DNA of 28,716 nucleotides, taken from Candidatus Colwellbacteria bacterium (GTDB taxonomy: Bacteria; Patescibacteriota; Minisyncoccia; UBA6257; Colwellbacteraceae). The translations under genes and the position numbers were made by a program. This document shows, one piece after another, positions 1,290 through 25,415 of this stretch. Within the stretch, counting starts at the first letter, position 1. The number at the start of each line of letters is the position of its first letter. The stretch is taken from contig JACWAO010000028.1 of NCBI GenBank assembly GCA_014874305.1, forward strand, positions 1 through 28,716. The letters are read 5' to 3'. Under the pieces are notes generated by a model. The model ran no database searches and was not told the DNA's origin. It was given only the letters and a program-made list of their open reading frames with translations.

Positions 1290-2206
1290 TGTACGATTTA
1301 ATAATCATAGGCGGCGGGCCAGGAGGAGTGGCCGCGGGCGTTTATGCCGACCGTAAAAAGTTAAAGACTCTCCTTATAACCGACGAGTTCGGCGGCCAGT
1401 CCAAGGTTTCGGACGAGGTGCAAAACTGGATAGGCGTTAAGTCAATCTCCGGTTTTGATTTATCCAAGGCTCTCGAGGAGCATCTTCGTGCGCAAAAGGA
1501 AATAGAGATAAGCGATAACGATCTGGTTTCGGGAATCGCGAAGATCGACGGGGGATTCGAGGTCTCAACCCAAAAAGGGAAAAAATATCAGACCAAAACC
1601 GTTCTTATCGTGTCCGGGAGCCATCATAAAAAGCTTGGCGTTACGGGGGAGGATAAGTTTAATGGTCGCGGCGTGGCATACTGCTCAACCTGCGACGCGC
1701 CGCTTTTTGGAGGAAAGGAGGTTGCTGTGGCTGGCGGGGGAAACTCGGCCTTGGAAGCGGTCGTCGATCTTCTGCCTTACGCTACTAAGGTATATTTGCT
1801 TGTCCGATCCGATAAGCTCAAAGGAGATCCGGTAACGCAGGACAAGATAAAAAACTCCGGCAAAGCGCAGATTATGTTCAACTCGGAGGTTCAGGAGGTT
1901 TCGGGAGACCAGTTTGTTTCGGGTGTGAAGTACCTGGATAAAGCCTCCAATTCCGTAAAGGAATTGCCGGTCGGCGGTGTTTTTGTGGAGGTGGGTTCGG
2001 CTCCGAACAGCGACTTTATTAAAGGCATGGTGGATTTGAACGAGTACGGATATATAGTCACTGATCCTAAAAACCAAAGAACGTCGACTCCGGGCATCTG
2101 GGCCGCGGGCGACGTTACCGATCTGCCTTTCCGCCAGAACAATATCTCTGCCGGCGATTCCGTGAAAGCTTTGCTGGATTTGTATAATTATTTGAACGGC
2201 CGCTAG
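1289..2206 (+). CDS. trxB: Thioredoxin reductase (FAD-dependent)
   Basis: GGGPGG FAD motif, CSTCD redox pair, GGGNSA NAD(P)H motif, GIWAAGDVT; TAATG overlap with the redoxin. Confidence 0.92.
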   Translation: MYDLIIIGGGPGGVAAGVYADRKKLKTLLITDEFGGQSKVSDEVQNWIGVKSISGFDLSKALEEHLRAQKEIEISDNDLVSGIAKIDGGFEVSTQKGKKYQTKTVLIVSGSHHKKLGVTGEDKFNGRGVAYCSTCDAPLFGGKEVAVAGGGNSALEAVVDLLPYATKVYLLVRSDKLKGDPVTQDKIKNSGKAQIMFNSEVQEVSGDQFVSGVKYLDKASNSVKELPVGGVFVEVGSAPNSDFIKGMVDLNEYGYIVTDPKNQRTSTPGIWAAGDVTDLPFRQNNISAGDSVKALLDLYNYLNGR

Positions 2207-2234
2207 AACGGGGCCGTTAGGCGCTTTCTACAAA

Positions 2235-2822
2235 ATGGAGGAAGGTAAAACGAGGGAGATTTTACGCAGACTTGCCGATTATGGAGATCGCGGCGATCGG
2301 CTTTCTTTTGGGAAACGCGTTGCTGGTGAAAACGGTACGCAAACCGTCTACAGTCTTGTAAACAGGCTGAAGCGGCAGGGATACGTAAGAAAAAAGAAAG
2401 AGAACGGAAAAAGCAGGTCCAACTGGGTTCTTACGAGGCTTGGGTTAAAGAAGCTGAGATTGCTTGAGGATGAGAGCCGTGTATCGGTTGGCGTGAATCC
2501 GGACGAGTTTTTAGGAGACAGCAAGCCGAACGTAATAATTTTCGACGTACCGGAGAGGTATTGCGATAGGCGAAGGAAGTTGCGTGCTCTTTTGATATCA
2601 TTGGAATATTCGATGATACAGAAAAGCGTCTGGTTCGGCTCGCGCCGGCCATCGTGGAAGTTTTATGAAAAACTGAACGAGTTATCATTAACGCCATTCG
2701 TAAAAGTGCTGGAAGTAAGCGGCAAACTTGTCAAAAAACTGCTTAACACCTCAGCTATGTTGTTCGTGCTTATTTACGGATTAAGAATGGTAAGTGTCAT
2801 GAGCTGTGAGGCAGTGAGTTAA
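2235..2822 (+). CDS. Winged-helix + PaaX-central/Cas2-VapD-like ferredoxin-fold protein
   Basis: N-terminal TVYSLVNRLKRQGYV...WVLTRLG wHTH pattern; C-terminal VIIFDVPE...RRKLRALL..LEYSMIQKSVW is the PaaX/Cas2-like signature. No CRISPR array or other cas gene in the window. Confidence 0.75.
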   Translation: MEEGKTREILRRLADYGDRGDRLSFGKRVAGENGTQTVYSLVNRLKRQGYVRKKKENGKSRSNWVLTRLGLKKLRLLEDESRVSVGVNPDEFLGDSKPNVIIFDVPERYCDRRRKLRALLISLEYSMIQKSVWFGSRRPSWKFYEKLNELSLTPFVKVLEVSGKLVKKLLNTSAMLFVLIYGLRMVSVMSCEAVS

Positions 2823-2863
2823 TCAGCGCCCTCAAATTTGTTGCGAATACCAATCCGCCCTCG

Positions 2864-2897
2864 CTAAACACCCTGTCCGATCGGACAGGGTGTTTAG
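2864..2897. repeat. Perfect 34-bp palindrome, copy 1
   Basis: CTAAACACCCTGTCCGA|TCGGACAGGGTGTTTAG, no spacer, no U-tract, 41 nt after the 2822 stop. Confidence 0.95.
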
Positions 2898-3125
2898 TAA
2901 AAGTTGATAAGAGTGCTTGATAGGTTCTGGAATAGGGTCTTACATTAGAAATGTGGAGCCTCACAGGCCTCATCAGGCGACATCCTTCCGAAGCGTATCC
3001 TTATTCGACAAGGCTAAGAAGAATGCACTCGTTCTACCTTTACGGATGGAGTTTTCTCTGTTGCGCGAAGGAGGGTAGAGCCTCATTTTTTAGCGTTAAC
3101 TTTTTACGTACCTGATTAAACTAAT

Positions 3126-3653
3126 ATGATTATCTCTTACAGGGCTTGGCCCAAGTGGGTGAAGTACTCGGCCGTTCTTATGGGCGTCGTGTTTATCTCG
3201 TCCTCGGCTTTTTTCGCGTGGTCAGGATATCTGAGTCCCGCCGCTAAAGAGAACCGCGCCCAGCAAAAAGCGGTTGAGGAGATAAAGATGTACCAGAGAA
3301 ATTACGAGACGGCGATGAGCGCGGACACGTATGGCGGTAAAACCCCGGAGGAGACGCTTAAGATGTTCGCCCAAGCTATTCAAAGTGATGATATCGATTC
3401 GGCTGTTAAGTATTTAGAGTTTGAGTATGACGGCAAACCAAAAAAAGAGCTGGAGGATGGCTTAAGAAAGGCTATCCAGGACGGTAAAAAGAGCCTGATT
3501 TTGGAGATTATAGATAAAGCGGAGTTTGATCCCCAGTCGTCTGATAAAGATGTTGCGTGGTTCTCCGTTAATAATGAAAACGGTATGGCTGAGTACAGTA
3601 TTATGTTGTCCTATAACAGATATGCAAATATATGGAAAGTAGAAGATATGTAG
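3126..3653 (+). CDS. Hypothetical single-TM-anchored extracytoplasmic protein
   Basis: N-terminal TM helix then soluble domain with DTYGGKTPEETL motif; ends ...IWKVEDM; overlaps the next gene by 22 nt. Confidence 0.75.
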   Translation: MIISYRAWPKWVKYSAVLMGVVFISSSAFFAWSGYLSPAAKENRAQQKAVEEIKMYQRNYETAMSADTYGGKTPEETLKMFAQAIQSDDIDSAVKYLEFEYDGKPKKELEDGLRKAIQDGKKSLILEIIDKAEFDPQSSDKDVAWFSVNNENGMAEYSIMLSYNRYANIWKVEDM

Positions 3654-6600
3654 TTTTAGTTTTCTTACTCGCCGGGATTGTTTTTATAAGCAATAAAGCT
3701 TTGGCGTATGGTTATAACACACATGCTTATTTAACGCGGGAAACGATTAATTTTTATAACAAGAACTTTCCAGCGAAGCAGATATCGCAGGATGGCGCGA
3801 GTTTCCTGATAGACGGATCGAGGCGGGAGGATGATATACCGCGCTCGATGGATCATTTTTACGATCCGGTAAACAATAGAGGGATAACGTATGATCCTGT
3901 TATCAAAGCGACTATACCGATTCCGGGGAGCTGGCTGAACGCCAAGGAGTGGTCGCAGAACCCGGCGGCGCAGAACGAACTGACGTACAAGGTGCCGGAA
4001 ACTATAGGATCGGTACTTACCGCGATCCAGCAGAGGGACATCTCCAAGATCTCGAGCGAGACGAACTTTACCTGGCAGAAGGCGATTAACCTCTACCTTA
4101 ATGGTGATAAGAACGGCGCGATGTTCGCGCTTGGGCATGTTCTGCACTTGTTGGAGGATATGTCCGTACCGGCTCACACGCGGAACGATCCGCATCCTGG
4201 GGGAGATTCTTATGAATTTTATACTGACAGGTTTCAGTTATCGACTCCAGACAAAAACTTGTCCGCGAAAGTTGATAAATTACAGCCGGTCGGCCTAGGA
4301 GACATAAACTCCTATTTTCAATCACTAGCGACTTATACTAATAATAATTTTTATAGCGACAGCACTATTGGATTAAACAGGGGATACGCCAACCCAGAAG
4401 CAGACTTGACCAATATAGAGCCAAATGAGAATCACTTTTATATATTGGGTAACACGGACAACCAAAAATATTATTTAGCTGTTAAGAGAAGTATGTCGGC
4501 TGGAGTTTTAAGTGCTCCATCAGATATAAAAATAGATGACGATGTTGTAAAAAATTCTTACTGGAACGTGCTTTCGGCAAAATCCGTCCAGTATTCGGCG
4601 GGGGTTATTGATTTGTTTTTTAAAGAAGTATCGAAGGCGCAGAGCGATCCGGTGTACGCTAAGAATTTTAATGTCGAGCCAAAATCGTTTATAGGCCAGA
4701 TAGTTAGTTCCGTCGCCTCGTTTACCGGAACAATAAAAGATACCGCAGTCCAGGCGTTACGCCAGTTGGTCGGCGGGAATAGCGGAAACCTGGTTCAGGT
4801 GGTTGATCTTACTTCCACGAGCAGTGTGGAACACGCGGTAAGTTCAACGCCGGTGGTGCAGGGGAATGTTAAATACAAACTGCAGATTACCGAGATAATG
4901 TACAACCCCGAGGGGAGCGATGCCGGAAAGGAGTGGGTTGAGATTGAAAATCTGGATCAAGTTCCTATCGACTTAACCAGGCTAACCCTGCGAGTTGATG
5001 GGTCAAATCATAAAATTAATAAATCATCCGGCTCTTCTTTACTGCCGCCTGGCGGGTATGCGGTTATAGCCGACGACCAGGCGACGTTTCAATCCTTATT
5101 TCCATCTTATTCGGGTATTTTGGCAGACAGCGCAGTATCGCTCAAGAATTCCAGCGGTAAAATAGAGACGCTGAACGGGGACGTTTTATTGGATGGCGTC
5201 ACTTATTATTCGGATTGGGGAGGAAACGGAGATGGCAACTCCCTCCAGCTTATAGGCGGCCAATGGCTTGCCAGTACACCGACCCCGGGCGCGGCTAACA
5301 AGATCGCGTTTGTACCTTCAAAGCTCAAAATCCCGCCCGGGGAAGGCGAGACTACGGCGGTTCCCGCTATGGAGGCGACGTCGACAAAACCCGCGTCTAC
5401 ATCAACCGGCGATTCGGAGAATAAACGAAAACAACAGACAACTTCTACTTCCCCGGTTGCGCAAATTTGCTCTTTTGCGGATTCCGGCGCATCGGGCTAT
5501 CATAGTGTCATCTTTAATGAGGTCGCGTGGATGGGGAGCGTTAATAGTGCCAATGACGAGTGGATAGAACTTAAAAACATCTCTAATTCCGCGGTCGATA
5601 TTTCCGGATGGCATGTTTTAAGCGGAGACGGGCATATCAAGGCAATCCTGCCGGAGAGGGCCGTTATTTCTCCGTCTGGTTTTTACTTACTGGAGAGGAC
5701 GAACACAAATTCGATTCCAGGCGTGACCGCCGATTTTGCCTATACCGGAAGCCTGGTAAATACCGGAACTGATCTGAAGCTTTTTGATAATAACTGTGCG
5801 TTAGTCGATAGCGTGAGTGGAGCGAACGGATGGCTGGCGGGAGATTCTTCCTTAAGGAGAACTATGGAGCGCGATCTTAACGGGAACGGGTGGCACACAT
5901 CAAATGCTGTGGGCGGTACTCCGAGGAGAGAGAATGATTCGGCGTTCCTCTCTCAATCCGGAGGCGGGGGAGGCGTGGTTATTTCTCAATCGCCAGCTCT
6001 TAATAACCAAGATACTCAGGAGACGAGCACGCCGGTTGTTTATCTGAAACTATTGATAACGGAGGTTCAACTGGCCTCGTCGAGCAGTACGAAGGATGAG
6101 TTCGTGGAGATTTATAACCCGAACGATACGGAACTGGACCTGACCGGCTGGTCAGTGATGAAGAAAACAAAAACCGCCGACTCGTTTTCTACGTTCGCCA
6201 AGGCGGACCTGTTCGATGGGAAGTTGATCAAGTCAAAAAGTTTTTTAGTTATCGCCAATTCAGAGGGCGGCGTTAGTGGAGACATTTTTACGACTTATGG
6301 CGTATCGGAGGACAACTCCATGGCGATCAAGAACCCGAACCACGAGGTTGTCGATAAAGTTGGTTGGGGAGAGGCGGGGGATTGCGAGGGAATGTGCGCG
6401 CCTCAGCCTACAGACGATAAAAGCATTGAAAGGAAGGTGGAAAACGGCGAGTTTACGGATAGCGGAGATAATTTTTCAGACTTCGAAGTTGGCGAGTGTC
6501 CGCACCCGGGCGCTTACTCGTTGACTTGCGCGGGCACAACGTCGACCGCCACCTCGACCGATATGACGACAGCGTCTTTGCCGTTAATGAGCGGCTTCTC

Positions 6601-14086: not shown

Positions 14087-14280
14087 CTTCGACTTGCTTG
14101 ATCCGTCGTAGTCTACTACGCAGACGTAAGTGACCTTCGCTCACTCAGCGCAGGCACGCCTCAATTTAGCCTACCGAAGCTCGCAAGCGAAAGCGGCCAG
14201 GCTCAGTGTAAACACTTCGATAAACCAGTGTTAAACCACATAAGATTCTTCGTCCGCCGGTTGGCGGACTCAGAATGACG
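14087..14280. repeat. Cluster of nested short palindromic repeats 3' of tRNA-Leu
   Basis: Hairpins CGTAGT-CT-ACTACG, AGTGA...TCACT and GTCCGCC-GGTT-GGCGGAC; degenerate CTTCGA...CAGTGT(T)AAAC units; terminal AGATTCTTCG-[hairpin]-TCAGAATGAC unit shared with 921-994. Confidence 0.7.
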
Positions 14281-14309
14281 AACGAAAAAGAAACTCAGGA
14301 TACCTTACT

Positions 14310-15563
14310 TCAATGAAGTGAGAGATCCTTTAAAATCTGTCTTATCAAGTACTTTGTGTCCTCGGCGTTTTCAACAGCAACCGTATCAATTCCTGTTTTT
14401 ACAGCCGCGTAATCATTTCCTCCTTCAAATAAGGCGTCGCCGACATAAGCCATCTTATCCACTGGCACTTTTAATATTTTTGATAATTGATGTATACCGT
14501 ACGCTTTGTCTATACCTTTTTGGGTTATATCGATAGATGTTCCGCCTCCGATTCTTACTTCAAACTCCGGCAAGTATTTTTCAAGGGCTTTTTTAATTCG
14601 CTGACGGAGGCCGTTTTCCATCTCTTTCCACTTATTTTTTTCTTCAAGCGGGGCCTTCTGTCCCAAAGGAGAAAAAGTAATCTGGCTGCCGCGGTCCTCC
14701 AGCACCACGCCATAAGTTTTTTTAGGGCGGATATATTTAACGTCTTTTAGGACTTTGGAAAACGAGCTTAAAATCTTCTTTTTTTCACTTGCCGTCAAAT
14801 TGTTTTTGTATACCGCACCCCATTTTCCCTTTGATAGTTTATACAGCTCGGCTCCGGAGGTTGGCTGTGCGTAGAGATTGCGGAATGATTTCTTGGACGC
14901 TTTCTTTAATTTGTCCAGGAATTGGGTCTTAAACTGAGGAAATCCTCCGCCTCCTATAACCGAAATTGTTTTTTTATCCAGGAGCTTATGCAATATACCA
15001 GCCATTTCTTCGTCCAAGTCGCACTTGCTTAACGTTAGAGTGCCGTCCAGGTCGAATAATATTACTGATTTAGACGCGAGCAATTCGGCTTTTTCATCCA
15101 GCCGCGCGATTTTTTTGTAGTTATTAAGAAGCCAGGAGCTGGACTGAACCTTTCCGCCGTCGCCTACGTTAAAAACCATCTTGCATCCGATGCGGTTGCA
15201 GACCTCCACCTCCGGTATGTTGTCCTTGAATCTGTCTCCTCCGTTGGCAAAAACGTCGGGCTTTAGTTCTTCTAGTTCGCGGCAGACGCTCCTGTCTTCC
15301 GGATTTGGCCCGTGTTTGGTTATTATCACTTCATCTACGGAATAAATTGACTCTATTATTTCTTTTCTTTCTTTTTCATTTATGAAGGCGTACCCCTTTT
15401 TGTGTTTTAGCCAGTAGTCGTTGTTTAGGATGACTACTAGCTTGTCCCCGAGTTTTTTAGCTTCATTAAAAAGGCGGACGTGACCCATGTGAATAGGGTC
15501 GAAACCGCCGCTTACCGCGACAACAATGGGCCTGTTTTTTTTAGATTTATTTAACCCTGCCAT
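14310..15563 (-). CDS. Fusion: HIGH-type cytidylyl/adenylyltransferase domain + HAD-IIB eukaryotic-type phosphomannomutase domain
   Basis: N-terminal SGGFDPIHMGH, LVVILNND, FANGGDR. C-terminal LFDLDGT, EDRGSQITFSPLGQKAP, GGGTSIDITQKGIDKAYG, GDALFEGGNDY. Start likely ATG 15563 rather than 15620. Confidence 0.85.
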   Translation of the reverse strand: MAGLNKSKKNRPIVVAVSGGFDPIHMGHVRLFNEAKKLGDKLVVILNNDYWLKHKKGYAFINEKERKEIIESIYSVDEVIITKHGPNPEDRSVCRELEELKPDVFANGGDRFKDNIPEVEVCNRIGCKMVFNVGDGGKVQSSSWLLNNYKKIARLDEKAELLASKSVILFDLDGTLTLSKCDLDEEMAGILHKLLDKKTISVIGGGGFPQFKTQFLDKLKKASKKSFRNLYAQPTSGAELYKLSKGKWGAVYKNNLTASEKKKILSSFSKVLKDVKYIRPKKTYGVVLEDRGSQITFSPLGQKAPLEEKNKWKEMENGLRQRIKKALEKYLPEFEVRIGGGTSIDITQKGIDKAYGIHQLSKILKVPVDKMAYVGDALFEGGNDYAAVKTGIDTVAVENAEDTKYLIRQILKDLSLH

Positions 15564-15897
15564 ACTTATCTTCGTAGCGAATGATATCTTTTTCTTCAGG
15601 TTTACCGAACGCCGCTTCAAGCACCAGGGAGTCGGCGACGCCCATCATCCTGTGTTTCTCTTTCTTGTTTATTTTTACGGAATCTCCCTTACGCAAAGTA
15701 TAAAACTTCTTGCCTTTTTGCGCGCGTATCGTTCCCTTTAATACCACCCACACTTCCGATCTGTTTTTGTGGCTTTGCAGGCTCAGCTTCTCCCCCTTTC
15801 TTACGAATATCTCCTTTATCCAATAGGTCGGAAGCGTTTCTATTACGGCGTACCACCCCCAGGGTTTTAACGCTAACTTACTCTTTGCTTTTGCCAT
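15547..15897 (-). CDS. Stand-alone cupin of the type II phosphomannose isomerase C-terminal family
   Basis: KPWGWY, LSLQSHKNRSEVWVV, KHRM, EDIIRYEDKYGR-like tail (EKDIIRYEDKYGR). Confidence 0.85.
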   Translation of the reverse strand: MAKAKSKLALKPWGWYAVIETLPTYWIKEIFVRKGEKLSLQSHKNRSEVWVVLKGTIRAQKGKKFYTLRKGDSVKINKKEKHRMMGVADSLVLEAAFGKPEEKDIIRYEDKYGRVK

Positions 15898-15913: not shown

Positions 15914-17830
15914 TCAGCGCTTAACAGCGTTTAGTATGTCTTTAAGTTTTATACTGGCAACTCCGATCGTCTGATCCGCTTCGCCGTAATAGAGAAATAT
16001 TTTTTCTCCGATTAATACCGCTCCGCATGGGAAAACAACGTTAGGCGTTAACCCCTGTTTCTCATAATTTTCCTTCGGTTCGAGGAGGGGATAGTCCGTC
16101 CGGCCCAATACCACGGTTGGGTCTTGCAGATCGGTTAGTACGGCCCCGACTCTATAGGTTCCATCCTCTTCTCCAACCCCGTGGTAAATGATAAGCCACC
16201 CATCTTTTGTTTTTATAGGAGGCGCGGCCACCCCGACTTTTTTGGAATCCCACCAGCCCGGTCGAGGTCTCAGCCACCTGTACTCCTCAAGCCAGGTTGT
16301 TCCGTCAAAATCCAAAGACTTGTGGAAAGAAAGATCGATATCATCGCCACTCCGGTGAATAATGGCATACTTGCCCTTGATTTTTTCCGGGAAGACGCAT
16401 GAGTCCTTGTCGTCTATCCCGGGAGGGGAGATTAGAACCGGTTTCGACCAGTTCCATTCTTGTCTTAGGAAATCACTGTCTCTTATCCAGGTTAAGGCGA
16501 CGCGGGGAGGGTTTTTCCCGTCGAACGCGGTGTAGAACATGTATATTTTCGAGCCGATTTTTACGAGGCGCGGGTCTTCGGTTCCGGAATTTCCGCCCTG
16601 CTGGAGTTTTTGTTCAAACGGTTCGCGCGGGGTATAAACCGGATCCCTAGACCTGTAACTTATATGAACCCCATCATCGCTTTGCGCGTAGCCAAGCACC
16701 GAGGTGTTGCTTGGGGACATCGCTCTATAAACAAGGTGGACTTTGCCGTCTAGGTATATCGCGCCGGGATTAAAAACCGCTTTTGTTTCCCATGACGAGT
16801 CTTTATTGGGCGTTAAGATCGGATTTTCTTTCGCGCGAGAAAATCCGATGGAGGCGGTATCTTTCTTGAGCATGTCGCTCGTAAGCGAAGAGAGGGGTAG
16901 AAACGCTACCGAACACGTGGTGTCGGCAGAGCCGTAATATAGATAAATAAGGTCTTTTTTAAGAATGGCTCCTGACGGGAAAACTATATTGGGAACGAAT
17001 CCGTATTTCTCATAGTATTCTTCCGGCTGGAGAATAGGGAAGTTTGTTCTGCCTATGATTTTCGCTGGATTTTTTAAGTCAAGAAGAACGGCCTCTATTC
17101 CGAATACTTTTTGCGGGGAGAAGTAGTTTCTTATATAGGAATAGACAAGCAACCACCCCTCTTTCGTTTTTATTGGCGGGGCGCCGACTTCTACGTGGTC
17201 CTGCGGGCGGCGCTCCAGAGGAAGAAGGTGTTTATCGATGTTTTTGTACCAGTTTTGCCAGTACGATTCGTCCCACATTTCCTCTTCTTTATCGAAGGAG
17301 GCGAGAGATATTTTGGCGGGAGGGCGATCGGTGTTGGCGGTAAGCACGGCCCACATCTTACCGTTTATCTTTTCCGGGAATAGGGCCATCGCCTTGGCGT
17401 TAAATGGCGTTACCAAGTGTTTCTCGCTGACTTTTTTTAAGTCCTTGCTTATCGCGAGCCCGACTCTTATGCCCTCCGCCTTGGGCGGCCAGCTCGAAAG
17501 GGCGGTATAAAAAATGAAGTATTTATTGTTAAGCTTGGTAACACGCGGGTCTTCGCATCCAAACTTCTCCCAATCGTATTCTGGGATGATAAATCTTCTG
17601 CGATTGTAAAAAGAGAGGCCGTTCTTGCTTTCCGCTATCCCAATGTCGGAGACCCTAAGCCTGGACTGGGCGGAGGTATGGTAATGGGGCAGAGAGACGG
17701 CGCGATATAAGAGAAAGATTTTTTCTTCCTTGGCGATGGGGCACCCATTAAAAACCGCTTCCGCTTCCCATGATTGATCCGGATTTGGTTTTAGTATGGG
17801 ATTCGTCTCGAATCGTTTAGCGAGCATCAC
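15914..17830 (-). CDS. Tandem two-domain GH130-family (beta-mannoside phosphorylase-like) protein
   Basis: Two repeats of NPIL.P...WE..AVFN, EDPR, FPEKI.G, APPIKTK.GW, P...YE..G..PNVVFP.GA, YYG.AD. Confidence 0.88.
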   Translation of the reverse strand: MMLAKRFETNPILKPNPDQSWEAEAVFNGCPIAKEEKIFLLYRAVSLPHYHTSAQSRLRVSDIGIAESKNGLSFYNRRRFIIPEYDWEKFGCEDPRVTKLNNKYFIFYTALSSWPPKAEGIRVGLAISKDLKKVSEKHLVTPFNAKAMALFPEKINGKMWAVLTANTDRPPAKISLASFDKEEEMWDESYWQNWYKNIDKHLLPLERRPQDHVEVGAPPIKTKEGWLLVYSYIRNYFSPQKVFGIEAVLLDLKNPAKIIGRTNFPILQPEEYYEKYGFVPNIVFPSGAILKKDLIYLYYGSADTTCSVAFLPLSSLTSDMLKKDTASIGFSRAKENPILTPNKDSSWETKAVFNPGAIYLDGKVHLVYRAMSPSNTSVLGYAQSDDGVHISYRSRDPVYTPREPFEQKLQQGGNSGTEDPRLVKIGSKIYMFYTAFDGKNPPRVALTWIRDSDFLRQEWNWSKPVLISPPGIDDKDSCVFPEKIKGKYAIIHRSGDDIDLSFHKSLDFDGTTWLEEYRWLRPRPGWWDSKKVGVAAPPIKTKDGWLIIYHGVGEEDGTYRVGAVLTDLQDPTVVLGRTDYPLLEPKENYEKQGLTPNVVFPCGAVLIGEKIFLYYGEADQTIGVASIKLKDILNAVKR

Positions 17831-18945
17831 TTTTTCTTCGCCTTTCCGGTTTTAAACGCCGGCTTTTCTCCTTTCATCAGTTCCGAGAGAAAAGTTTCTA
17901 AGTTCGCATAAGCAACACTAACATAATTATCGGCCGCGCCATAGTAGACGAAGAGCTTTCCGTCTTTGATGACCGCGCCCGACACGTAAACTATTCCGGC
18001 TTTGAACCCGTTGTTTTCGTACTCTTTTTCTGGTTCGAGAACGGGCTCTGGAGAGCGATAAAGGATTTTAGACGGGTCGTTTAAATCTAAGAGTATCGCG
18101 CCAACCTTGTATTTTCCCGGGTCGTTCTTATCCATTGCGTGGTAGAATAACAGCCACCCCTCTTTCGTTTTTATTGGCGGGGCGCCGGCTCCTCTTATCC
18201 AACTTTCCCAGCGCTTTTTTTCTCCATTCGTGCCGTCGTGACGGCTTCTGATATAATCATCGTCTTTAAACTCTAAAGTATCTCTGTACTCGATAAGTAT
18301 TTTGGGAGTTATGCTGTGCAGTATAGCGTACCGGCCGTTTATTTTTTCCGGAAAAATTACCCAGTTTTTATGCGTTTCCCCCGGAGGGGAGATTAAGACC
18401 GGAGGACTCCATCTCCAGCGCTTGTTAAGCATGTCCTCCTCGCTTATATGCGTGAGCGCGACTCCCAGTCCATCATCGCAGGCGGTATAGGTTACGTATA
18501 GAATCCCCTCGTTTTCCATATTGGTTATGCGCGGATCCTCACTGCCGCCGAAGCTTCCCCCCGAGGCAAAAGAATATGGATTAAAAACACGTTTATTAGT
18601 AAGTATGTGTTCGTAAACAGGATAATGGAGCCTTTCACTTATTACTAGGCCGTTCTCTGAAGAGGCGTATCCAAAGCGGGAGATTCCGTCGTCTCCTATG
18701 GCGCGGTATAAAAAGTGTACCTTATCTTTAATGAGAGCCGCGCCAGGATTGAATGTTTGCCACGCTTCCCACGAGTTTTCCGCGGACGGAGAAATAATCG
18801 GGTTCGCTTCCGGCTTGGATAACTTGATCGGGCTTATCTTTTTTTCGCTTCTGACAACTATCTTAGATCTTGTCCTTACAGTCTTTCTTGGGGCGGTTTT
18901 TCTGGAGGTATTCCCTTCTTGTTTTTTTACGGACTGCCTGGGCAT
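17827..18945 (-). CDS. Single-domain GH130-family protein with basic N- and C-terminal tails
   Basis: TFNPGA, GSEDPRIT, HKNWVIFPEKINGRYAILH, GAGAPPIKTKEGWLLFYH, YYGAAD; ATGA coupling to the next gene. Confidence 0.88.
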   Translation of the reverse strand: MPRQSVKKQEGNTSRKTAPRKTVRTRSKIVVRSEKKISPIKLSKPEANPIISPSAENSWEAWQTFNPGAALIKDKVHFLYRAIGDDGISRFGYASSENGLVISERLHYPVYEHILTNKRVFNPYSFASGGSFGGSEDPRITNMENEGILYVTYTACDDGLGVALTHISEEDMLNKRWRWSPPVLISPPGETHKNWVIFPEKINGRYAILHSITPKILIEYRDTLEFKDDDYIRSRHDGTNGEKKRWESWIRGAGAPPIKTKEGWLLFYHAMDKNDPGKYKVGAILLDLNDPSKILYRSPEPVLEPEKEYENNGFKAGIVYVSGAVIKDGKLFVYYGAADNYVSVAYANLETFLSELMKGEKPAFKTGKAKKK

Positions 18946-19173
18946 TTACTTATATTATTAACTACGTGTTCCGTGGAGCGGGTGTATTTTATGTGCAAAC
19001 CACGACTGTTTTGTTCGTTACCGGCGGTTTCTAATCTGGAGGTTCTTTCATAAGAATAATACTACTTGCCGCGCATTAAACAAGAACAGCATCTGTTAAT
19101 AACTTTAGGGGATAGAGCCTAAGAATAACCGCAGACTTTTCTTTATTATAAGCTTCTGGTAAAAGGTATGTAG

Positions 19174-20202
19174 ATGATAATCTGGTCCATTGAGACATCG
19201 TGCGACGAGACGGCAATCGCGGTTGTTAAAGCAAGCGGGGGATTGAGTAAACCGAAATTCGAGGTGCTGACAAGCGTTGTCTCCTCGCAGATTGCGGTTC
19301 ACCGGCCGTTTGGCGGAGTCGTGCCGAATTTGGCCAAAAGGGAGCATCTTAAAAATCTTCCGATCTTGCTCCAAAAACTTGCCAAGGAGGGCTTTGATAT
19401 TAAAAAAGCGGACACTCTCGCTGTTACCGTCGGGCCGGGCCTGGAACCGGCGCTTTGGACCGGCGTTAATTTCGCCAAGGAGCTGGCTAAGAAGTATAAG
19501 AAACCGTTAACCGGGGTAAACCACTTGGAGGGGCATATCTACAGCTTTCTTCTTTCAAAGAGCGCGGGGCGCCTAGAGTTAAAGGATATTTTTCCGGCGG
19601 TTGCGCTTCTTGTAAGCGGAGGACACACCTTAATTTTAAAGATGGACTCTTTAACGAAGTGGAAGAAGATGGGTGAGACGAGGGATGACGCGGTGGGGGA
19701 GGCGTACGACAAGGTTGCCCGTCTTTTGGATCTCCCATACCCGGGAGGTCCGGAGATAGAAAAAGCGTCGAGTTTGGGAAACGGGGAGGCCGTATCCTTT
19801 CCGAGGCCGATGATCGATCAGAAAAATTACGACTTCAGCTTTTCGGGATTAAAGACGGCGGTTCTTTATTATCTCCGCGACCACCCCGTTAAAACGGAAA
19901 AAGACCGGGCCGATGCGGCGGCATCTTTTGAAGAAGCGGCGGTAGAGGTTTTAGTCAAAAAAACAATACGCGCCGCTATGGACGTGAAAGCCAAGGCGGT
20001 TATTATTTCCGGAGGCGTTGCGGCCAACAAGCGCTTGCGCGAGGAACTTAAAAGCGCCGCTAAAAAGAATAAAATAAAATTTTTCGCTCCGGAGATGAAG
20101 TTCAATACCGATAACGCGGCGATGGTCGCGGCCGCGGCCTATCTTGCCAACTTGCGCGGGAGGAGAAGAAGGATAACGGCGCAAGCCAATCTGACTGTCT
20201 AG
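19174..20202 (+). CDS. tsaD: tRNA threonylcarbamoyladenosine (t6A) synthesis protein TsaD
   Basis: IETSCDETA, VNHLEGH, LLVSGGHT, TRDDAVGEAYDKVAR, DFSFSGLKT, TDNAAMVA. Confidence 0.95.
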   Translation: MIIWSIETSCDETAIAVVKASGGLSKPKFEVLTSVVSSQIAVHRPFGGVVPNLAKREHLKNLPILLQKLAKEGFDIKKADTLAVTVGPGLEPALWTGVNFAKELAKKYKKPLTGVNHLEGHIYSFLLSKSAGRLELKDIFPAVALLVSGGHTLILKMDSLTKWKKMGETRDDAVGEAYDKVARLLDLPYPGGPEIEKASSLGNGEAVSFPRPMIDQKNYDFSFSGLKTAVLYYLRDHPVKTEKDRADAAASFEEAAVEVLVKKTIRAAMDVKAKAVIISGGVAANKRLREELKSAAKKNKIKFFAPEMKFNTDNAAMVAAAAYLANLRGRRRRITAQANLTV

Positions 20203-23906: not shown

Positions 23907-25415
23907 ATGAGATGGAATCGCGTTTTTGAGGCTATTCCGGCCTCATTCTCTCTGACTACGATACTAGCTTTTATATCCGCTTCTATCTTTTTGCCGTTTT
24001 ACACTGCGATTTTTGTGATACTTTTCGACACCTACTGGCTCTTAAAAACCATATACTTTTACTTTCATTTACAGACTACCGAGAGGGAACTGCAGAGGAA
24101 CTTGAAAATCGACTGGATGAAAAAGCTTGAGGAGGACTCTAAAACTTCTCATTTATGGGGGAGCGTGTACCATCTTGTTATTCTTCCTATGTATAAGGAA
24201 CCGCTTCCCGTGGTTAAGGAAAGTTTTGACGGACTTCTTAAGACGAGTTTTCCCAAGAAAAAGATGATAGTTGTTTTAGCGCAGGAGGAACGCGCGGGAG
24301 AAAAAGCGGCCGAGATCGGAAGAGAGATAGAAAAAATCTACGGGAAAAGCTTTTTCAAGTTCCTTGTAACTTCCCATCCGGCGGATATCCCCGGAGAGAT
24401 TCCCGGAAAGGGATCTAACGAAACCTGGGCGGCCAGGGAGGCTAAGGAGAAGATAATTGATCCGTTGAGCATCGATTATGAGAAGGTAATGGTTTCGGTT
24501 TTTGATGTTGATACCCAGGTCTCCCCGGAGTATTTCGCGATTCTTACATACGCGTTTTTAACGTCCCCTCATCCGCAGAGATCGAGTTACCAGCCGATCC
24601 CGTTTTTCAATAATAATATTTTTGATTCTCCGGCGCTGGCAAGAGTGATGGCGTACTCCACCACTTTCTGGGGAATGATGGAACAGTCGAGACCCGAGCA
24701 CCTGGTTACGTTTTCTTCCCACTCCACCCCGTTTAAGCCCTTGGCGGAGATGGGCTTTTGGGATACTAATGTGGTTTCCGAGGATTCGCATATCTTCTGG
24801 CAGCTTCTTACGCATTACCACGGTGATTGGCGGGTCGTTCCCTTGAAGTATCCGGTATCGATGGATGTTAACGTCGGTTCGAACTTCCGGCAGACGATCG
24901 GAAACCTTTACAAACAGCAAAGGCGCTGGGCCTGGGGAGTGGAGAATTTTCCGTATATAGTAACGAGATTTTTTTTCAACAAGAGCGTCATACCGTTAAG
25001 GAGCAAGCTTTACCGCGCCTACAGCGAGTTTAGCGGGACCTACTCATGGGCGATAAGCGCGATAATAGTTTCCCTGGGGTGGTTGCCCGTAGCCTTGGGG
25101 GGAAAGACGTTTAACAATACCGTTTTGTCTTACAACTTGCCGCACATCACGACCTATCTTATGTGGGTAGGATCTTTCGGAATAATAATGTCGGGAGTGA
25201 TTACTTTCTCTCTTTTACCTCCCAAGCCGGAATGGTTTAAGGCCCGCCATTATGTTTTTTACTTCGCTCAATGGTTTCTTATGCCGGTCAGCATGATCGT
25301 TCTAGGCGCTGCGCCGGCAATAGAGGCGCAAATCCGCCTTATGCTTGGGGGAAGGTTTCGTCTGGGCTTTTGGGTTACGCCGAAGAGCCGAAAAGAGAAG
25401 GTTGGGGTCTCCTGA
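23907..25415 (+). CDS. Processive-type GT2 glycosyltransferase (polytopic membrane protein)
   Basis: LPMYKE, GKGSNE, FDVDT, SEDSH, QQRRWAWG (D,D,D,QxxRW signature) with N- and C-terminal TM helices. Confidence 0.88.
   Translation: MRWNRVFEAIPASFSLTTILAFISASIFLPFYTAIFVILFDTYWLLKTIYFYFHLQTTERELQRNLKIDWMKKLEEDSKTSHLWGSVYHLVILPMYKEPLPVVKESFDGLLKTSFPKKKMIVVLAQEERAGEKAAEIGREIEKIYGKSFFKFLVTSHPADIPGEIPGKGSNETWAAREAKEKIIDPLSIDYEKVMVSVFDVDTQVSPEYFAILTYAFLTSPHPQRSSYQPIPFFNNNIFDSPALARVMAYSTTFWGMMEQSRPEHLVTFSSHSTPFKPLAEMGFWDTNVVSEDSHIFWQLLTHYHGDWRVVPLKYPVSMDVNVGSNFRQTIGNLYKQQRRWAWGVENFPYIVTRFFFNKSVIPLRSKLYRAYSEFSGTYSWAISAIIVSLGWLPVALGGKTFNNTVLSYNLPHITTYLMWVGSFGIIMSGVITFSLLPPKPEWFKARHYVFYFAQWFLMPVSMIVLGAAPAIEAQIRLMLGGRFRLGFWVTPKSRKEKVGVS

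Follow-up and report, generated by a model that had tools for sequence, protein, structure and literature searches.

The window analysed here, a stretch of 28,716 nucleotides, is contig C10 of a 607-kb Patescibacteria genome (106 contigs, estimated to be 98.6% complete) and carries a tight operon of four minus-strand genes, encoding a GH130 protein, a double GH130 protein, a stand-alone cupin and, as the last gene, a fusion of a HIGH-class nucleotidyltransferase (NTase) to a HAD-IIB phosphohexomutase. On the basis of comparative sequence analysis we consider it probable that the last two proteins follow the route fructose-6-phosphate (Fru-6-P) ↔ mannose-6-phosphate (Man-6-P) ↔ mannose-1-phosphate (Man-1-P) → nucleoside diphosphate mannose (NDP-mannose), with the HIGH-class enzyme replacing the GT-A half of ManC. 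In this route the cupin would interconvert Fru-6-P and Man-6-P, and the HAD-IIB domain would interconvert Man-6-P and α-Man-1-P, and probably the glucose phosphates too, like other HAD-type phosphomannomutases (PMMs). The N-terminal NTase would then convert Man-1-P and a nucleoside triphosphate into NDP-mannose and pyrophosphate. The GH130 enzymes would supply α-Man-1-P through phosphorolysis of β-1,2-mannosides, and may also build β-1,2-mannoside chains from Man-1-P or NDP-mannose. The cupin and the fusion would represent the mannose-phosphate end of a β-1,2-mannoside operon, covering the functions of ManA/ManC and ManB.

Mannose as the sugar, the direction of the flux and a sugar 1-phosphate as the substrate of the NTase are all inferred, and the network of fusions, every one of which was checked by Pfam, is the strongest evidence for mannose. 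The fusion of NTase to PMM recurs in about 60 homologues of the present gene with identities of 48-66%, and the search of domain architectures which an earlier note on this DNA had proposed retrieved other fusions of mannose enzymes as well. These are a PMM-NTase-cupin protein of 560 residues (P0077), a cupin-PMM protein (P0091), a PMM-GH130 protein (P0109) and an NTase-cupin protein of 290 residues (G143/L031), whose gene has three GT4 genes and a short-chain dehydrogenase/reductase (SDR) gene around it; in its domain layout this last protein reproduces ManC, with a different transferase in the place of the original one. The same genes are also found unfused, in the orders NTase-PMM-cupin-GH130-GH130 (G284), NTase-HAD-cupin-GH130-GH130 (G256) and GH130-GH130-NTase-cupin (L018), and the two GH130 genes are followed by the fusion in G195 and L017. 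In the locus L014 a bifunctional glucose-6-phosphate isomerase (PGI)/phosphomannose isomerase (PMI) occupies the place of the cupin (TIGR02128, 215 bits, above the equivalog cut-off), a displacement that is expected if the role of the cupin is that of a PMI, the isomerisation between Fru-6-P and Man-6-P. The NTase-mutase fusion itself is rare, being present in two of the 301 species genomes (the present one and G195), and split forms are common. An NCBI metagenome protein of 532 residues (P0053) carries an HNH endonuclease domain, at residues 85-131, N-terminal to an NTase-PMM body.

By profile comparison the cupin (P0002) belongs to the type II PMI family, i.e. to the C-terminal half of ManC, and its predicted function is that of a Fru-6-P/Man-6-P isomerase. 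The match to PF01050, 'Mannose-6-phosphate isomerase C-terminal', has 71.4 bits (cut-off 23.6), and that to the GMP_PMI model TIGR01479 has 68.4 bits (cut-off 373) and covers only the last ~110 model positions, 359-467, so that the GT-A half is missing, as the earlier note had recognised. With a score below the cut-off and no N-terminal GT-A guanylyltransferase domain, the cupin falls outside the bifunctional ManC family. It shares 45% identity with the C-terminus of P0243, a ManC-type protein of 486 residues, and 33% with E. coli CpsB. P0002 was aligned with the cupin of the triple fusion, P0243, CpsB and two further Patescibacteria cupins, free or fused; Q41, H43, E48 and H82, the putative metal ligands, are the same in every sequence, and they make up the Gln/His/Glu/His metal set that a PMI-type cupin is expected to have. 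The tripeptide EVW, to which attention had been drawn in place of the usual EHW, is indeed a difference from E. coli CpsB and P0243, which both have EHW, whereas P0002 and the other Patescibacteria cupins have E[VFLM]W. Since all four of the Patescibacteria cupins aligned have V, F, L or M at the position of the His, EVW characterises the subfamily and is no lesion. The detachment of the cupin, which had been taken as a sign of rewiring, is real but no oddity: PF01050 was found in 50 of the 301 sampled genomes and a frame of ManC length in only three, and free PF01050 cupins are the rule in the phylum (the tallies of PF01050 and PF00483 over the 301 genomes include one unpublished genome, G154, on which no particular conclusion depends). 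A sequence search of the PDB with the cupin gave a single marginal cupin match.

The fusion of an HxGH transferase to a HAD-IIB PMM-like domain, also seen earlier, is borne out by matches to PF01467 and to PF03332/TIGR01484 in one open frame. The mutase half matches PF03332 with 60.6 bits (cut-off 22.4) over model positions 2-220 of 221, and the HAD-IIB model TIGR01484 with 64.2 bits (cut-off 41.8); together with PF08282 these models span residues 186-431 of the open frame, where the nucleophile motif reads DLDGT. The Asp pair of motif I and the Mg site GGND (D171, D173, D376, N383 and D384, numbering of P0001:20-436) are invariant in 59 homologues. The closest solved relative is the α-phosphoglucomutase (α-PGM) PgmH of L. 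lactis (4bnd), with 115 bits over residues 4-251 of the query and 2-248 of the chain, compared with 46-78 bits for eukaryotic PMMs. In PMM2 the residues R21, R123, N128, R134 and R141 are ligands of the substrate and its phosphate. Analysing these positions in PMM2 numbering, it is possible to see that the mutase keeps R123 and has K for R21, T for N128, Q for R134 and K for R141, exactly as 4bnd does; the motif GQKA is also common to the mutase and PgmH. The designation 'eukaryotic-type PMM' of the earlier note is valid only at the level of the family (PF03332), but the nearest characterised relative is the lactococcal α-PGM and the sugar is not settled by the sequence alone. Published HAD-type PMMs are bifunctional PMM/PGM enzymes, with phosphates of mannose as well as of glucose as their substrates (PMC8808168).

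The NTase half matches PF01467 with 51.2 bits (cut-off 21) over residues 37-133 of the open frame from 15620, and its HxGH motif reads GGFDPIHMGH. In the alignment A3 both His residues of this motif are invariant; in A1 this holds for the first, and the second is conserved to at least 90%. Further invariant positions in 59 stand-alone and fused homologues are N47, D49, W51, K55 and K56, the stretch G108-G109-D110-R111 and the stretch G137-K138-x-Q140-S141-S142-S143-W144. The AlphaFold2 (AF2) models have a pLDDT of 88 for the NTase domain and a pLDDT of 91 with a pTM of 0.76 for the whole fusion. With the NTase model Foldseek retrieved 145 PDB matches at E <= 1e-3, and all 20 of the best-ranked listed matches belong to the PF01467 superfamily; the best is HldC of B. 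pseudomallei (5xf2, TMq 0.73), closely followed by TagD (1coz), 3glv, ECT, Fom1 and CCT. The model and the motifs together place the NTase in the Rossmann-like HIGH-signature nucleotidyltransferase superfamily, with a C-terminal QSSSW for (I)S(T/S)(T/S). Among the NCBIfam models the domain II model of rfaE, TIGR02199, ranks first (74.6 bits, cut-off 181.5), the TagD model TIGR01518 comes next with 54.1 bits (cut-off 165.4), and the identity to domain II of E. coli HldE is 32%. Membership of the HldE-II/HldC group was considered and rejected, given this sub-cut-off score, a separate clade and the lack of a heptokinase half.

The canonical enzymes of the route are absent from the genome. Profile searches found no match to PF00483, PF12804, PF02878, PF20511 or PF00342, and the genome is without a GT-A sugar nucleotidyltransferase, an α-D-phosphohexomutase, a type I PMI and a PGI. 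E. coli ManB, GlmS, GlmM, GlmU and Gmd and the kinase half of HldE had no tblastn match in the genome, while E. coli ManC matched the cupin only and HldE matched the NTase domain only (HldE residues 342-461). The question of manC/manB-type genes elsewhere in the genome, raised earlier, can thus be answered: none was found by profile searches and tblastn. The fusion is also the only PF01467 protein of the genome. The proposed replacement is therefore complete in the present genome, an unusual state, but it is not a general property of the clade; the earlier proposal of a HIGH-class replacement making NDP-mannose gains from the fusions, the adjacencies and the absence of GT-A enzymes here, and loses its generality because 290 of the 301 sampled relatives keep PF00483.

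The genome holds three GT2 and five GT4 genes and a WecB/RmlC/RmlD/SDR set, and NCBIfam typing of the GT2/GT4 genes gave no indication of the donor nucleotide. The WecB-type UDP-N-acetylglucosamine (UDP-GlcNAc) 2-epimerase heads a Cap5EFG-like set of WecB, RmlD, RmlC and SDR genes (C91:6694-10276, L013). MurA (C17:12315-13604) and MurC-F/MraY (C89, C8, C58, C101) are encoded in the genome (G000), yet no GlmS, GlmM or GlmU was detected there, and its UDP-GlcNAc may possibly come through import or an unrecognised route. As the fusion is the sole sugar nucleotidyltransferase, with Mur and WecB genes present and no GlmS/GlmM/GlmU, it may be promiscuous and supply other nucleotide sugars. Neither substrate channelling nor the GT2-like gene at 23907-25415 as a possible user of the product, both suggested earlier, gains support: the gene is 8 kb distant, on the opposite strand and with housekeeping genes in between, matches only PF13632, and has no operonic or comparative connection with the operon.

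Stand-alone versions of the NTase, of 150-170 residues, account for about 8000 database clusters at E <= 1e-10, the best 120 listed being 66-75% identical. Whether they are fused to or encoded beside mannose-phosphate genes, belong to polysaccharide clusters or have neighbours that tell nothing, the NTases fall into one clade (clade M) by BLAST and in a maximum-likelihood tree. The members linked to mannose are dispersed over this clade: the tree requires about six changes of that label, and the three types of fusion occupy different branches. Because the NTase parts of the fusions lie in one clade but on separate branches, at least three fusion events must have occurred. The bootstrap of this tree is not fully converged and some branches are long, and only its coarse split between HldE-II and the clade is used here. 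Clade members in surface-polysaccharide clusters have among their neighbours a flippase, a GalE-like SDR, Bac_transf, GT2/GT4 and UDPG/GDP-mannose dehydrogenase genes. In the loci L019 and L021 a flippase-NTase pair adjoins SDR-Bac_transf-GT2-GT4, and in the genomes G186 and G109 NTase and PMM pairs lie inside Bac_transf/SDR clusters. Typing of the SDRs beside stand-alone NTases gave sub-threshold GalE/RmlB-like matches only, by which the nucleotide was not diagnosed. A homologue of the fusion on the JGI contig Ga0209515_10000167 (477-12809, L016) is accompanied by a GH26, a polysaccharide deacetylase, a UDPG/GDP-mannose dehydrogenase and a large GT2, and by NosD/β-helix and alginate-lyase-2 domain proteins, which points to the same enzyme feeding a mannuronan-like polymer of the cell surface. 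These polysaccharide-cluster contexts all fit an enzyme supplying an activated sugar for surface glycans.

Several further arrangements were observed around the NTase family. A NUDIX hydrolase gene adjoins a stand-alone clade-M NTase in two unrelated genomes (L025:6437-6895 and L029:5301-5819, both on the minus strand), and this hydrolase could be a nucleotide-sugar pyrophosphatase partner. A second and more distant NTase paralogue ('f31-type', ~37% identical) lies at ~5960-6480 in each of L036-L050, from genomes of the family f31, where NrdD and NrdR are followed by the NTase and then by a convergent gene for a TrxB-like flavoprotein. In L045 (G169:C64, 5977-8862) a short PF01050-like cupin and a sister-clade NTase are adjacent and divergent from GlmS, with genes for a GT-A transferase, an SDR and RmlC-like proteins nearby, which makes another module centred on Fru-6-P.

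The features of the operon are collected in the table below. The double GH130 protein is, to judge from its domains, the upstream operon partner making or using α-Man-1-P, and its C-terminal domain reaches the β-1,2-mannobiose phosphorylase equivalog NF052550 (472.7 bits, cut-off 450). The open frame of the fusion extends to a TTG at 15620 (14310-15620, minus strand), but translation probably begins with the ATG at 15563, as it does in P0003, a database gene call of 417 residues to which the product is 100% identical. This start overlaps the 3' end of the cupin gene, stop codon included, by 17 nt, for which reason the two genes are probably translationally coupled. Promoter-like sites in the region are not more numerous than expected from shuffled sequence. 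Directly past the stop of the fusion (14245-14300, minus strand) there is a GC-rich hairpin, GTCCGCC-AACC-GGCGGAC, with no T-tract, which is more like a REP-like unit than an intrinsic terminator. The gene rpiB adjoins the operon.

Table. Features of the putative β-1,2-mannoside operon, in window coordinates.
Feature	Coordinates	Strand	Basis and remarks
Promoter-like site TCTACA-18-TATAAT, 10/12	19145-19174	-	Upstream of the first GH130 gene; consensus match only
Single-domain GH130 protein, 372 aa, first gene of the operon	17827-18945	-	PF04041, 139 bits; order also in G195, L017, L018
Protein of 638 aa with two GH130 domains	15914-17830	-	PF04041, 355 bits in 2 stretches
Stand-alone cupin P0002, 116 aa	15547-15897	-	PF01050; TIGR01479 residues 359-467 only
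Fusion gene, 417 aa from the ATG at 15563	14310-15563	-	HIGH-class nucleotidyltransferase + HAD-IIB phosphohexomutase
Nucleotidyltransferase domain, residues 1-141 of the 417-aa protein	15141-15563	-	PF01467; motifs HxGH, NNDxW..KKG, GGDR, GGKxQSSSW
Predicted long linker helix, residues 142-163	15075-15140	-	DSSP on the AF2 model
HAD-IIB PMM/α-PGM-like mutase domain	14313-15074	-	PF03332, TIGR01484; DLDGT nucleophile, GQKA and GDxxxxGGND motifs

Several observations weigh against the proposed formation of NDP-mannose. The NTase reaches the trusted cut-off of no NCBIfam equivalog, and its fold is about equally similar to HldC, TagD and the ECT/CCT enzymes. HldE-type enzymes take the β-anomer, and PMM and GH130 enzymes handle α-Man-1-P. 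PF00483 GT-A enzymes are kept even by the relative G195, which bears the fusion, and their presence in nearly all relatives means that a replacement is not obligatory. Another relative, G241, has neither type of transferase; the absence of GT-A enzymes here is consequently no proof that the fusion supplies nucleotide sugars, and nucleotide sugars may possibly be imported. Many members of the NTase clade are found in uninformative housekeeping contexts, with RuvB, PAP2 or NUDIX neighbours. Searches of the literature gave no paper on an NTase-PMM fusion or on a HIGH-class Man-1-P nucleotidylyltransferase, and nothing specific on enzymes forming ADP- or CDP-mannose or on nucleotide-sugar routes in the candidate phyla radiation. 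Finally, with its far higher score against the lactococcal α-PGM than against PMMs, and with T, Q and K at the positions of PMM2 N128, R134 and R141, the mutase could have glucose phosphates as its main substrates.

The latter point makes a role in the formation of NDP-glucose (or of NDP-hexoses broadly) the most serious rival, although we regard it as unlikely. In this case the PgmH-type HAD domain would convert glucose-6-phosphate (Glc-6-P) into glucose-1-phosphate, the NTase would form NDP-glucose for the GT4/GT2 enzymes, and the link with mannose would be secondary. Besides the resemblance to PgmH in score, GQKA motif and substituted residues, the genome has no other phosphoglucomutase or enzyme of the GalU/GlgC type, and its GT4 genes give weak glycogen-synthase-like matches. 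However, the PF01050 PMI cupin and GH130 both occur in fusions with HAD domains of the same clade, and this clade is found in GH130/cupin operons of at least six genomes or contigs; moreover, no PGI or other source of Glc-6-P was detected in the genome. HAD-type PMMs usually take both sugars, so that a role with glucose overlaps the proposed synthesis of NDP-mannose rather than excluding it.

A purely catabolic operon, leading from β-mannosides over Man-1-P and Man-6-P to Fru-6-P, with an NTase that is regulatory, related to a cofactor or engaged in forming a bisphosphate activator, seems to us quite unlikely. Such a route is complete without the NTase, published GH130 pathways are catabolic, some GH130 operons of the phylum (G101, G226, G298, G083, G136 and G254) have no NTase, and stand-alone NTases occur also away from sugar genes. 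It would nevertheless leave unexplained the invariance of the catalytic motifs of the NTase and several independent fusions of an intact NTase to the cupin and to the mutase. The NTase-cupin fusion moreover mirrors ManC in the midst of GT4 genes, and several members of the clade lie inside clusters for polysaccharide synthesis.

The synthesis of an NDP-heptose, for which the cupin would isomerise sedoheptulose-7-phosphate, the mutase would transfer the phosphate on C7 to C1 and ADP-heptose would be made by the HldE-II-like domain, we hold to be very improbable. HldC and domain II of rfaE are indeed the best neighbours in fold and among the NCBIfam models, rpiB is adjacent to the operon, and the clade members of L019 and L021 lie beside GmhA-like and HddA-like genes; those two clusters, however, already carry a GT-A (HddC-like) transferase of their own. 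Domain II of E. coli HldE groups with an enzyme of the genome G236 (support 98/97) outside the NTase clade, and the cluster of that enzyme, with a PfkB kinase, a GmhB-like HAD protein and an SDR, is that of an ADP-heptose-type pathway. The phylum thus has a distinct heptose enzyme, the true HldE-II orthologue, in a different clade, which argues against a heptose role for the present locus, even though in the G236 cluster a PF01050-like cupin appears to stand in for GmhA. No kinase half of HldE was detected in the present genome by tblastn, the cupin is close to the C-terminus of ManC and is exchanged for a PGI/PMI in L014, and the GH130 partners act on mannosides. The G236 cluster (L059, C1:267500-273500) shows in its own right a reshuffling of domains: in the open reading frames 2949-4268 and 1952-3130, both on the minus strand, a PfkB kinase is fused to a PF01050-like cupin, which appears to replace the isomerase GmhA, and an HldE-II-like NTase is fused to a GmhB-like HAD-IIIA phosphatase, with GT4 genes and an SDR gene flanking them.

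That the N-terminal domain is a TagD-like glycerol-3-phosphate cytidylyltransferase or a RibL-like FMN adenylyltransferase with an incidental HAD fusion is hardly credible, since its likeness in fold and sequence to TagD (1coz, 2b7l) and to the archaeal 143-residue protein 3glv, its weak FAD_syn and RibF_rel matches and its standing as the only PF01467 protein of the genome are set against the low TIGR01518 score, a region reading GGKVQSSSW with no RTEGISTT motif, a genome in which no CDP-glycerol glycerophosphotransferase (PF04464) and no flavokinase (PF01687) was found, and informative clade contexts that consist of sugar-phosphate and glycan genes.

The synthesis of NDP-mannose therefore stays the reading that we prefer. 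A more specific form of it, in which the HIGH-class enzyme would make a mannose nucleotide other than GDP-mannose (ADP- or CDP-mannose) as the dedicated donor of the GH130 modules, within a mannogen-like cycle that builds and breaks β-1,2-mannan, is put forward only tentatively, as we doubt it more than we favour it. The identity of the nucleotide would reveal the donor used by the unusual multi-domain GH130 proteins of Patescibacteria. Should the proposal be true, a HIGH-class Rossmann-like enzyme at the Man-1-P step would be a clear non-orthologous displacement in the core supply of glycan precursors. The NTase clade is very common in Patescibacteria and its members are labelled by pipelines as 'heptose-1-P adenylyltransferase', 'glycerol-3-P cytidylyltransferase' or 'HAD hydrolase'; owing to these labels, a route to activated mannose is probably overlooked in metabolic reconstructions. 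Being small and apparently soluble, the enzymes lend themselves to a direct test of the hypothesis in vitro.

Among the described systems, the one that comes closest is the gene cluster Teth514_1785-1796 of Thermoanaerobacter sp. X-514, which brings together two GH130 β-1,2-mannoside phosphorylases, a GT4 and a canonical Man-1-P guanylyltransferase, and has been proposed to be a phosphorylase-fed salvage route to GDP-mannose (PMC4264767); β-1,2-specific GH130 enzymes also accept GDP-mannose as a weak donor (PMC12814180). The present operon resembles it in the clustering of β-1,2-type GH130 genes with a gene for an enzyme that would activate the released α-Man-1-P. The two differ in that the Thermoanaerobacter transferase is of the GT-A type, with PMM and PMI encoded elsewhere, whereas here it is of the HIGH class, with the mutase and the isomerase in the operon, and in that the present operon has no ABC transporter or GH5. 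The mutase half aligns end to end, in HAD-IIB core and cap, with PgmH of L. lactis and with the HAD-type PMMs (PMM1/PMM2, PfHAD5), and shares with them the DxDGT nucleophile, the equivalent of PMM2 R123 and the GGND Mg site; unlike these enzymes it is fused to a nucleotidyltransferase, and its genomic partners suggest mannose and not glucose. With domain II of E. coli HldE and with HldC the NTase half shares the motifs HxGH, N(S/N)D...KG and GGD, and in either case the substrate would be a sugar 1-phosphate of manno configuration. The NTase differs from them in having no partner heptokinase, GmhA or GmhB in the genome, in its association with PMM, PMI cupin and GH130, and in the α-anomer that it would need here. 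To our knowledge, the characterised mannose-1-phosphate nucleotidylyltransferases all have the GT-A fold. With ManC/CpsB/AlgA (TIGR01479) the operon has in common a cupin homologous to the C-terminal PMI, with the ligand set Q-x-H...E...H kept, and relatives of this cupin are fused to a nucleotidyltransferase as in ManC; it departs from ManC in the EVW of the cupin and in the replacement of the PF00483 GT-A half by a PF01467 HIGH-class enzyme, which is fused here to the mutase instead of the cupin.

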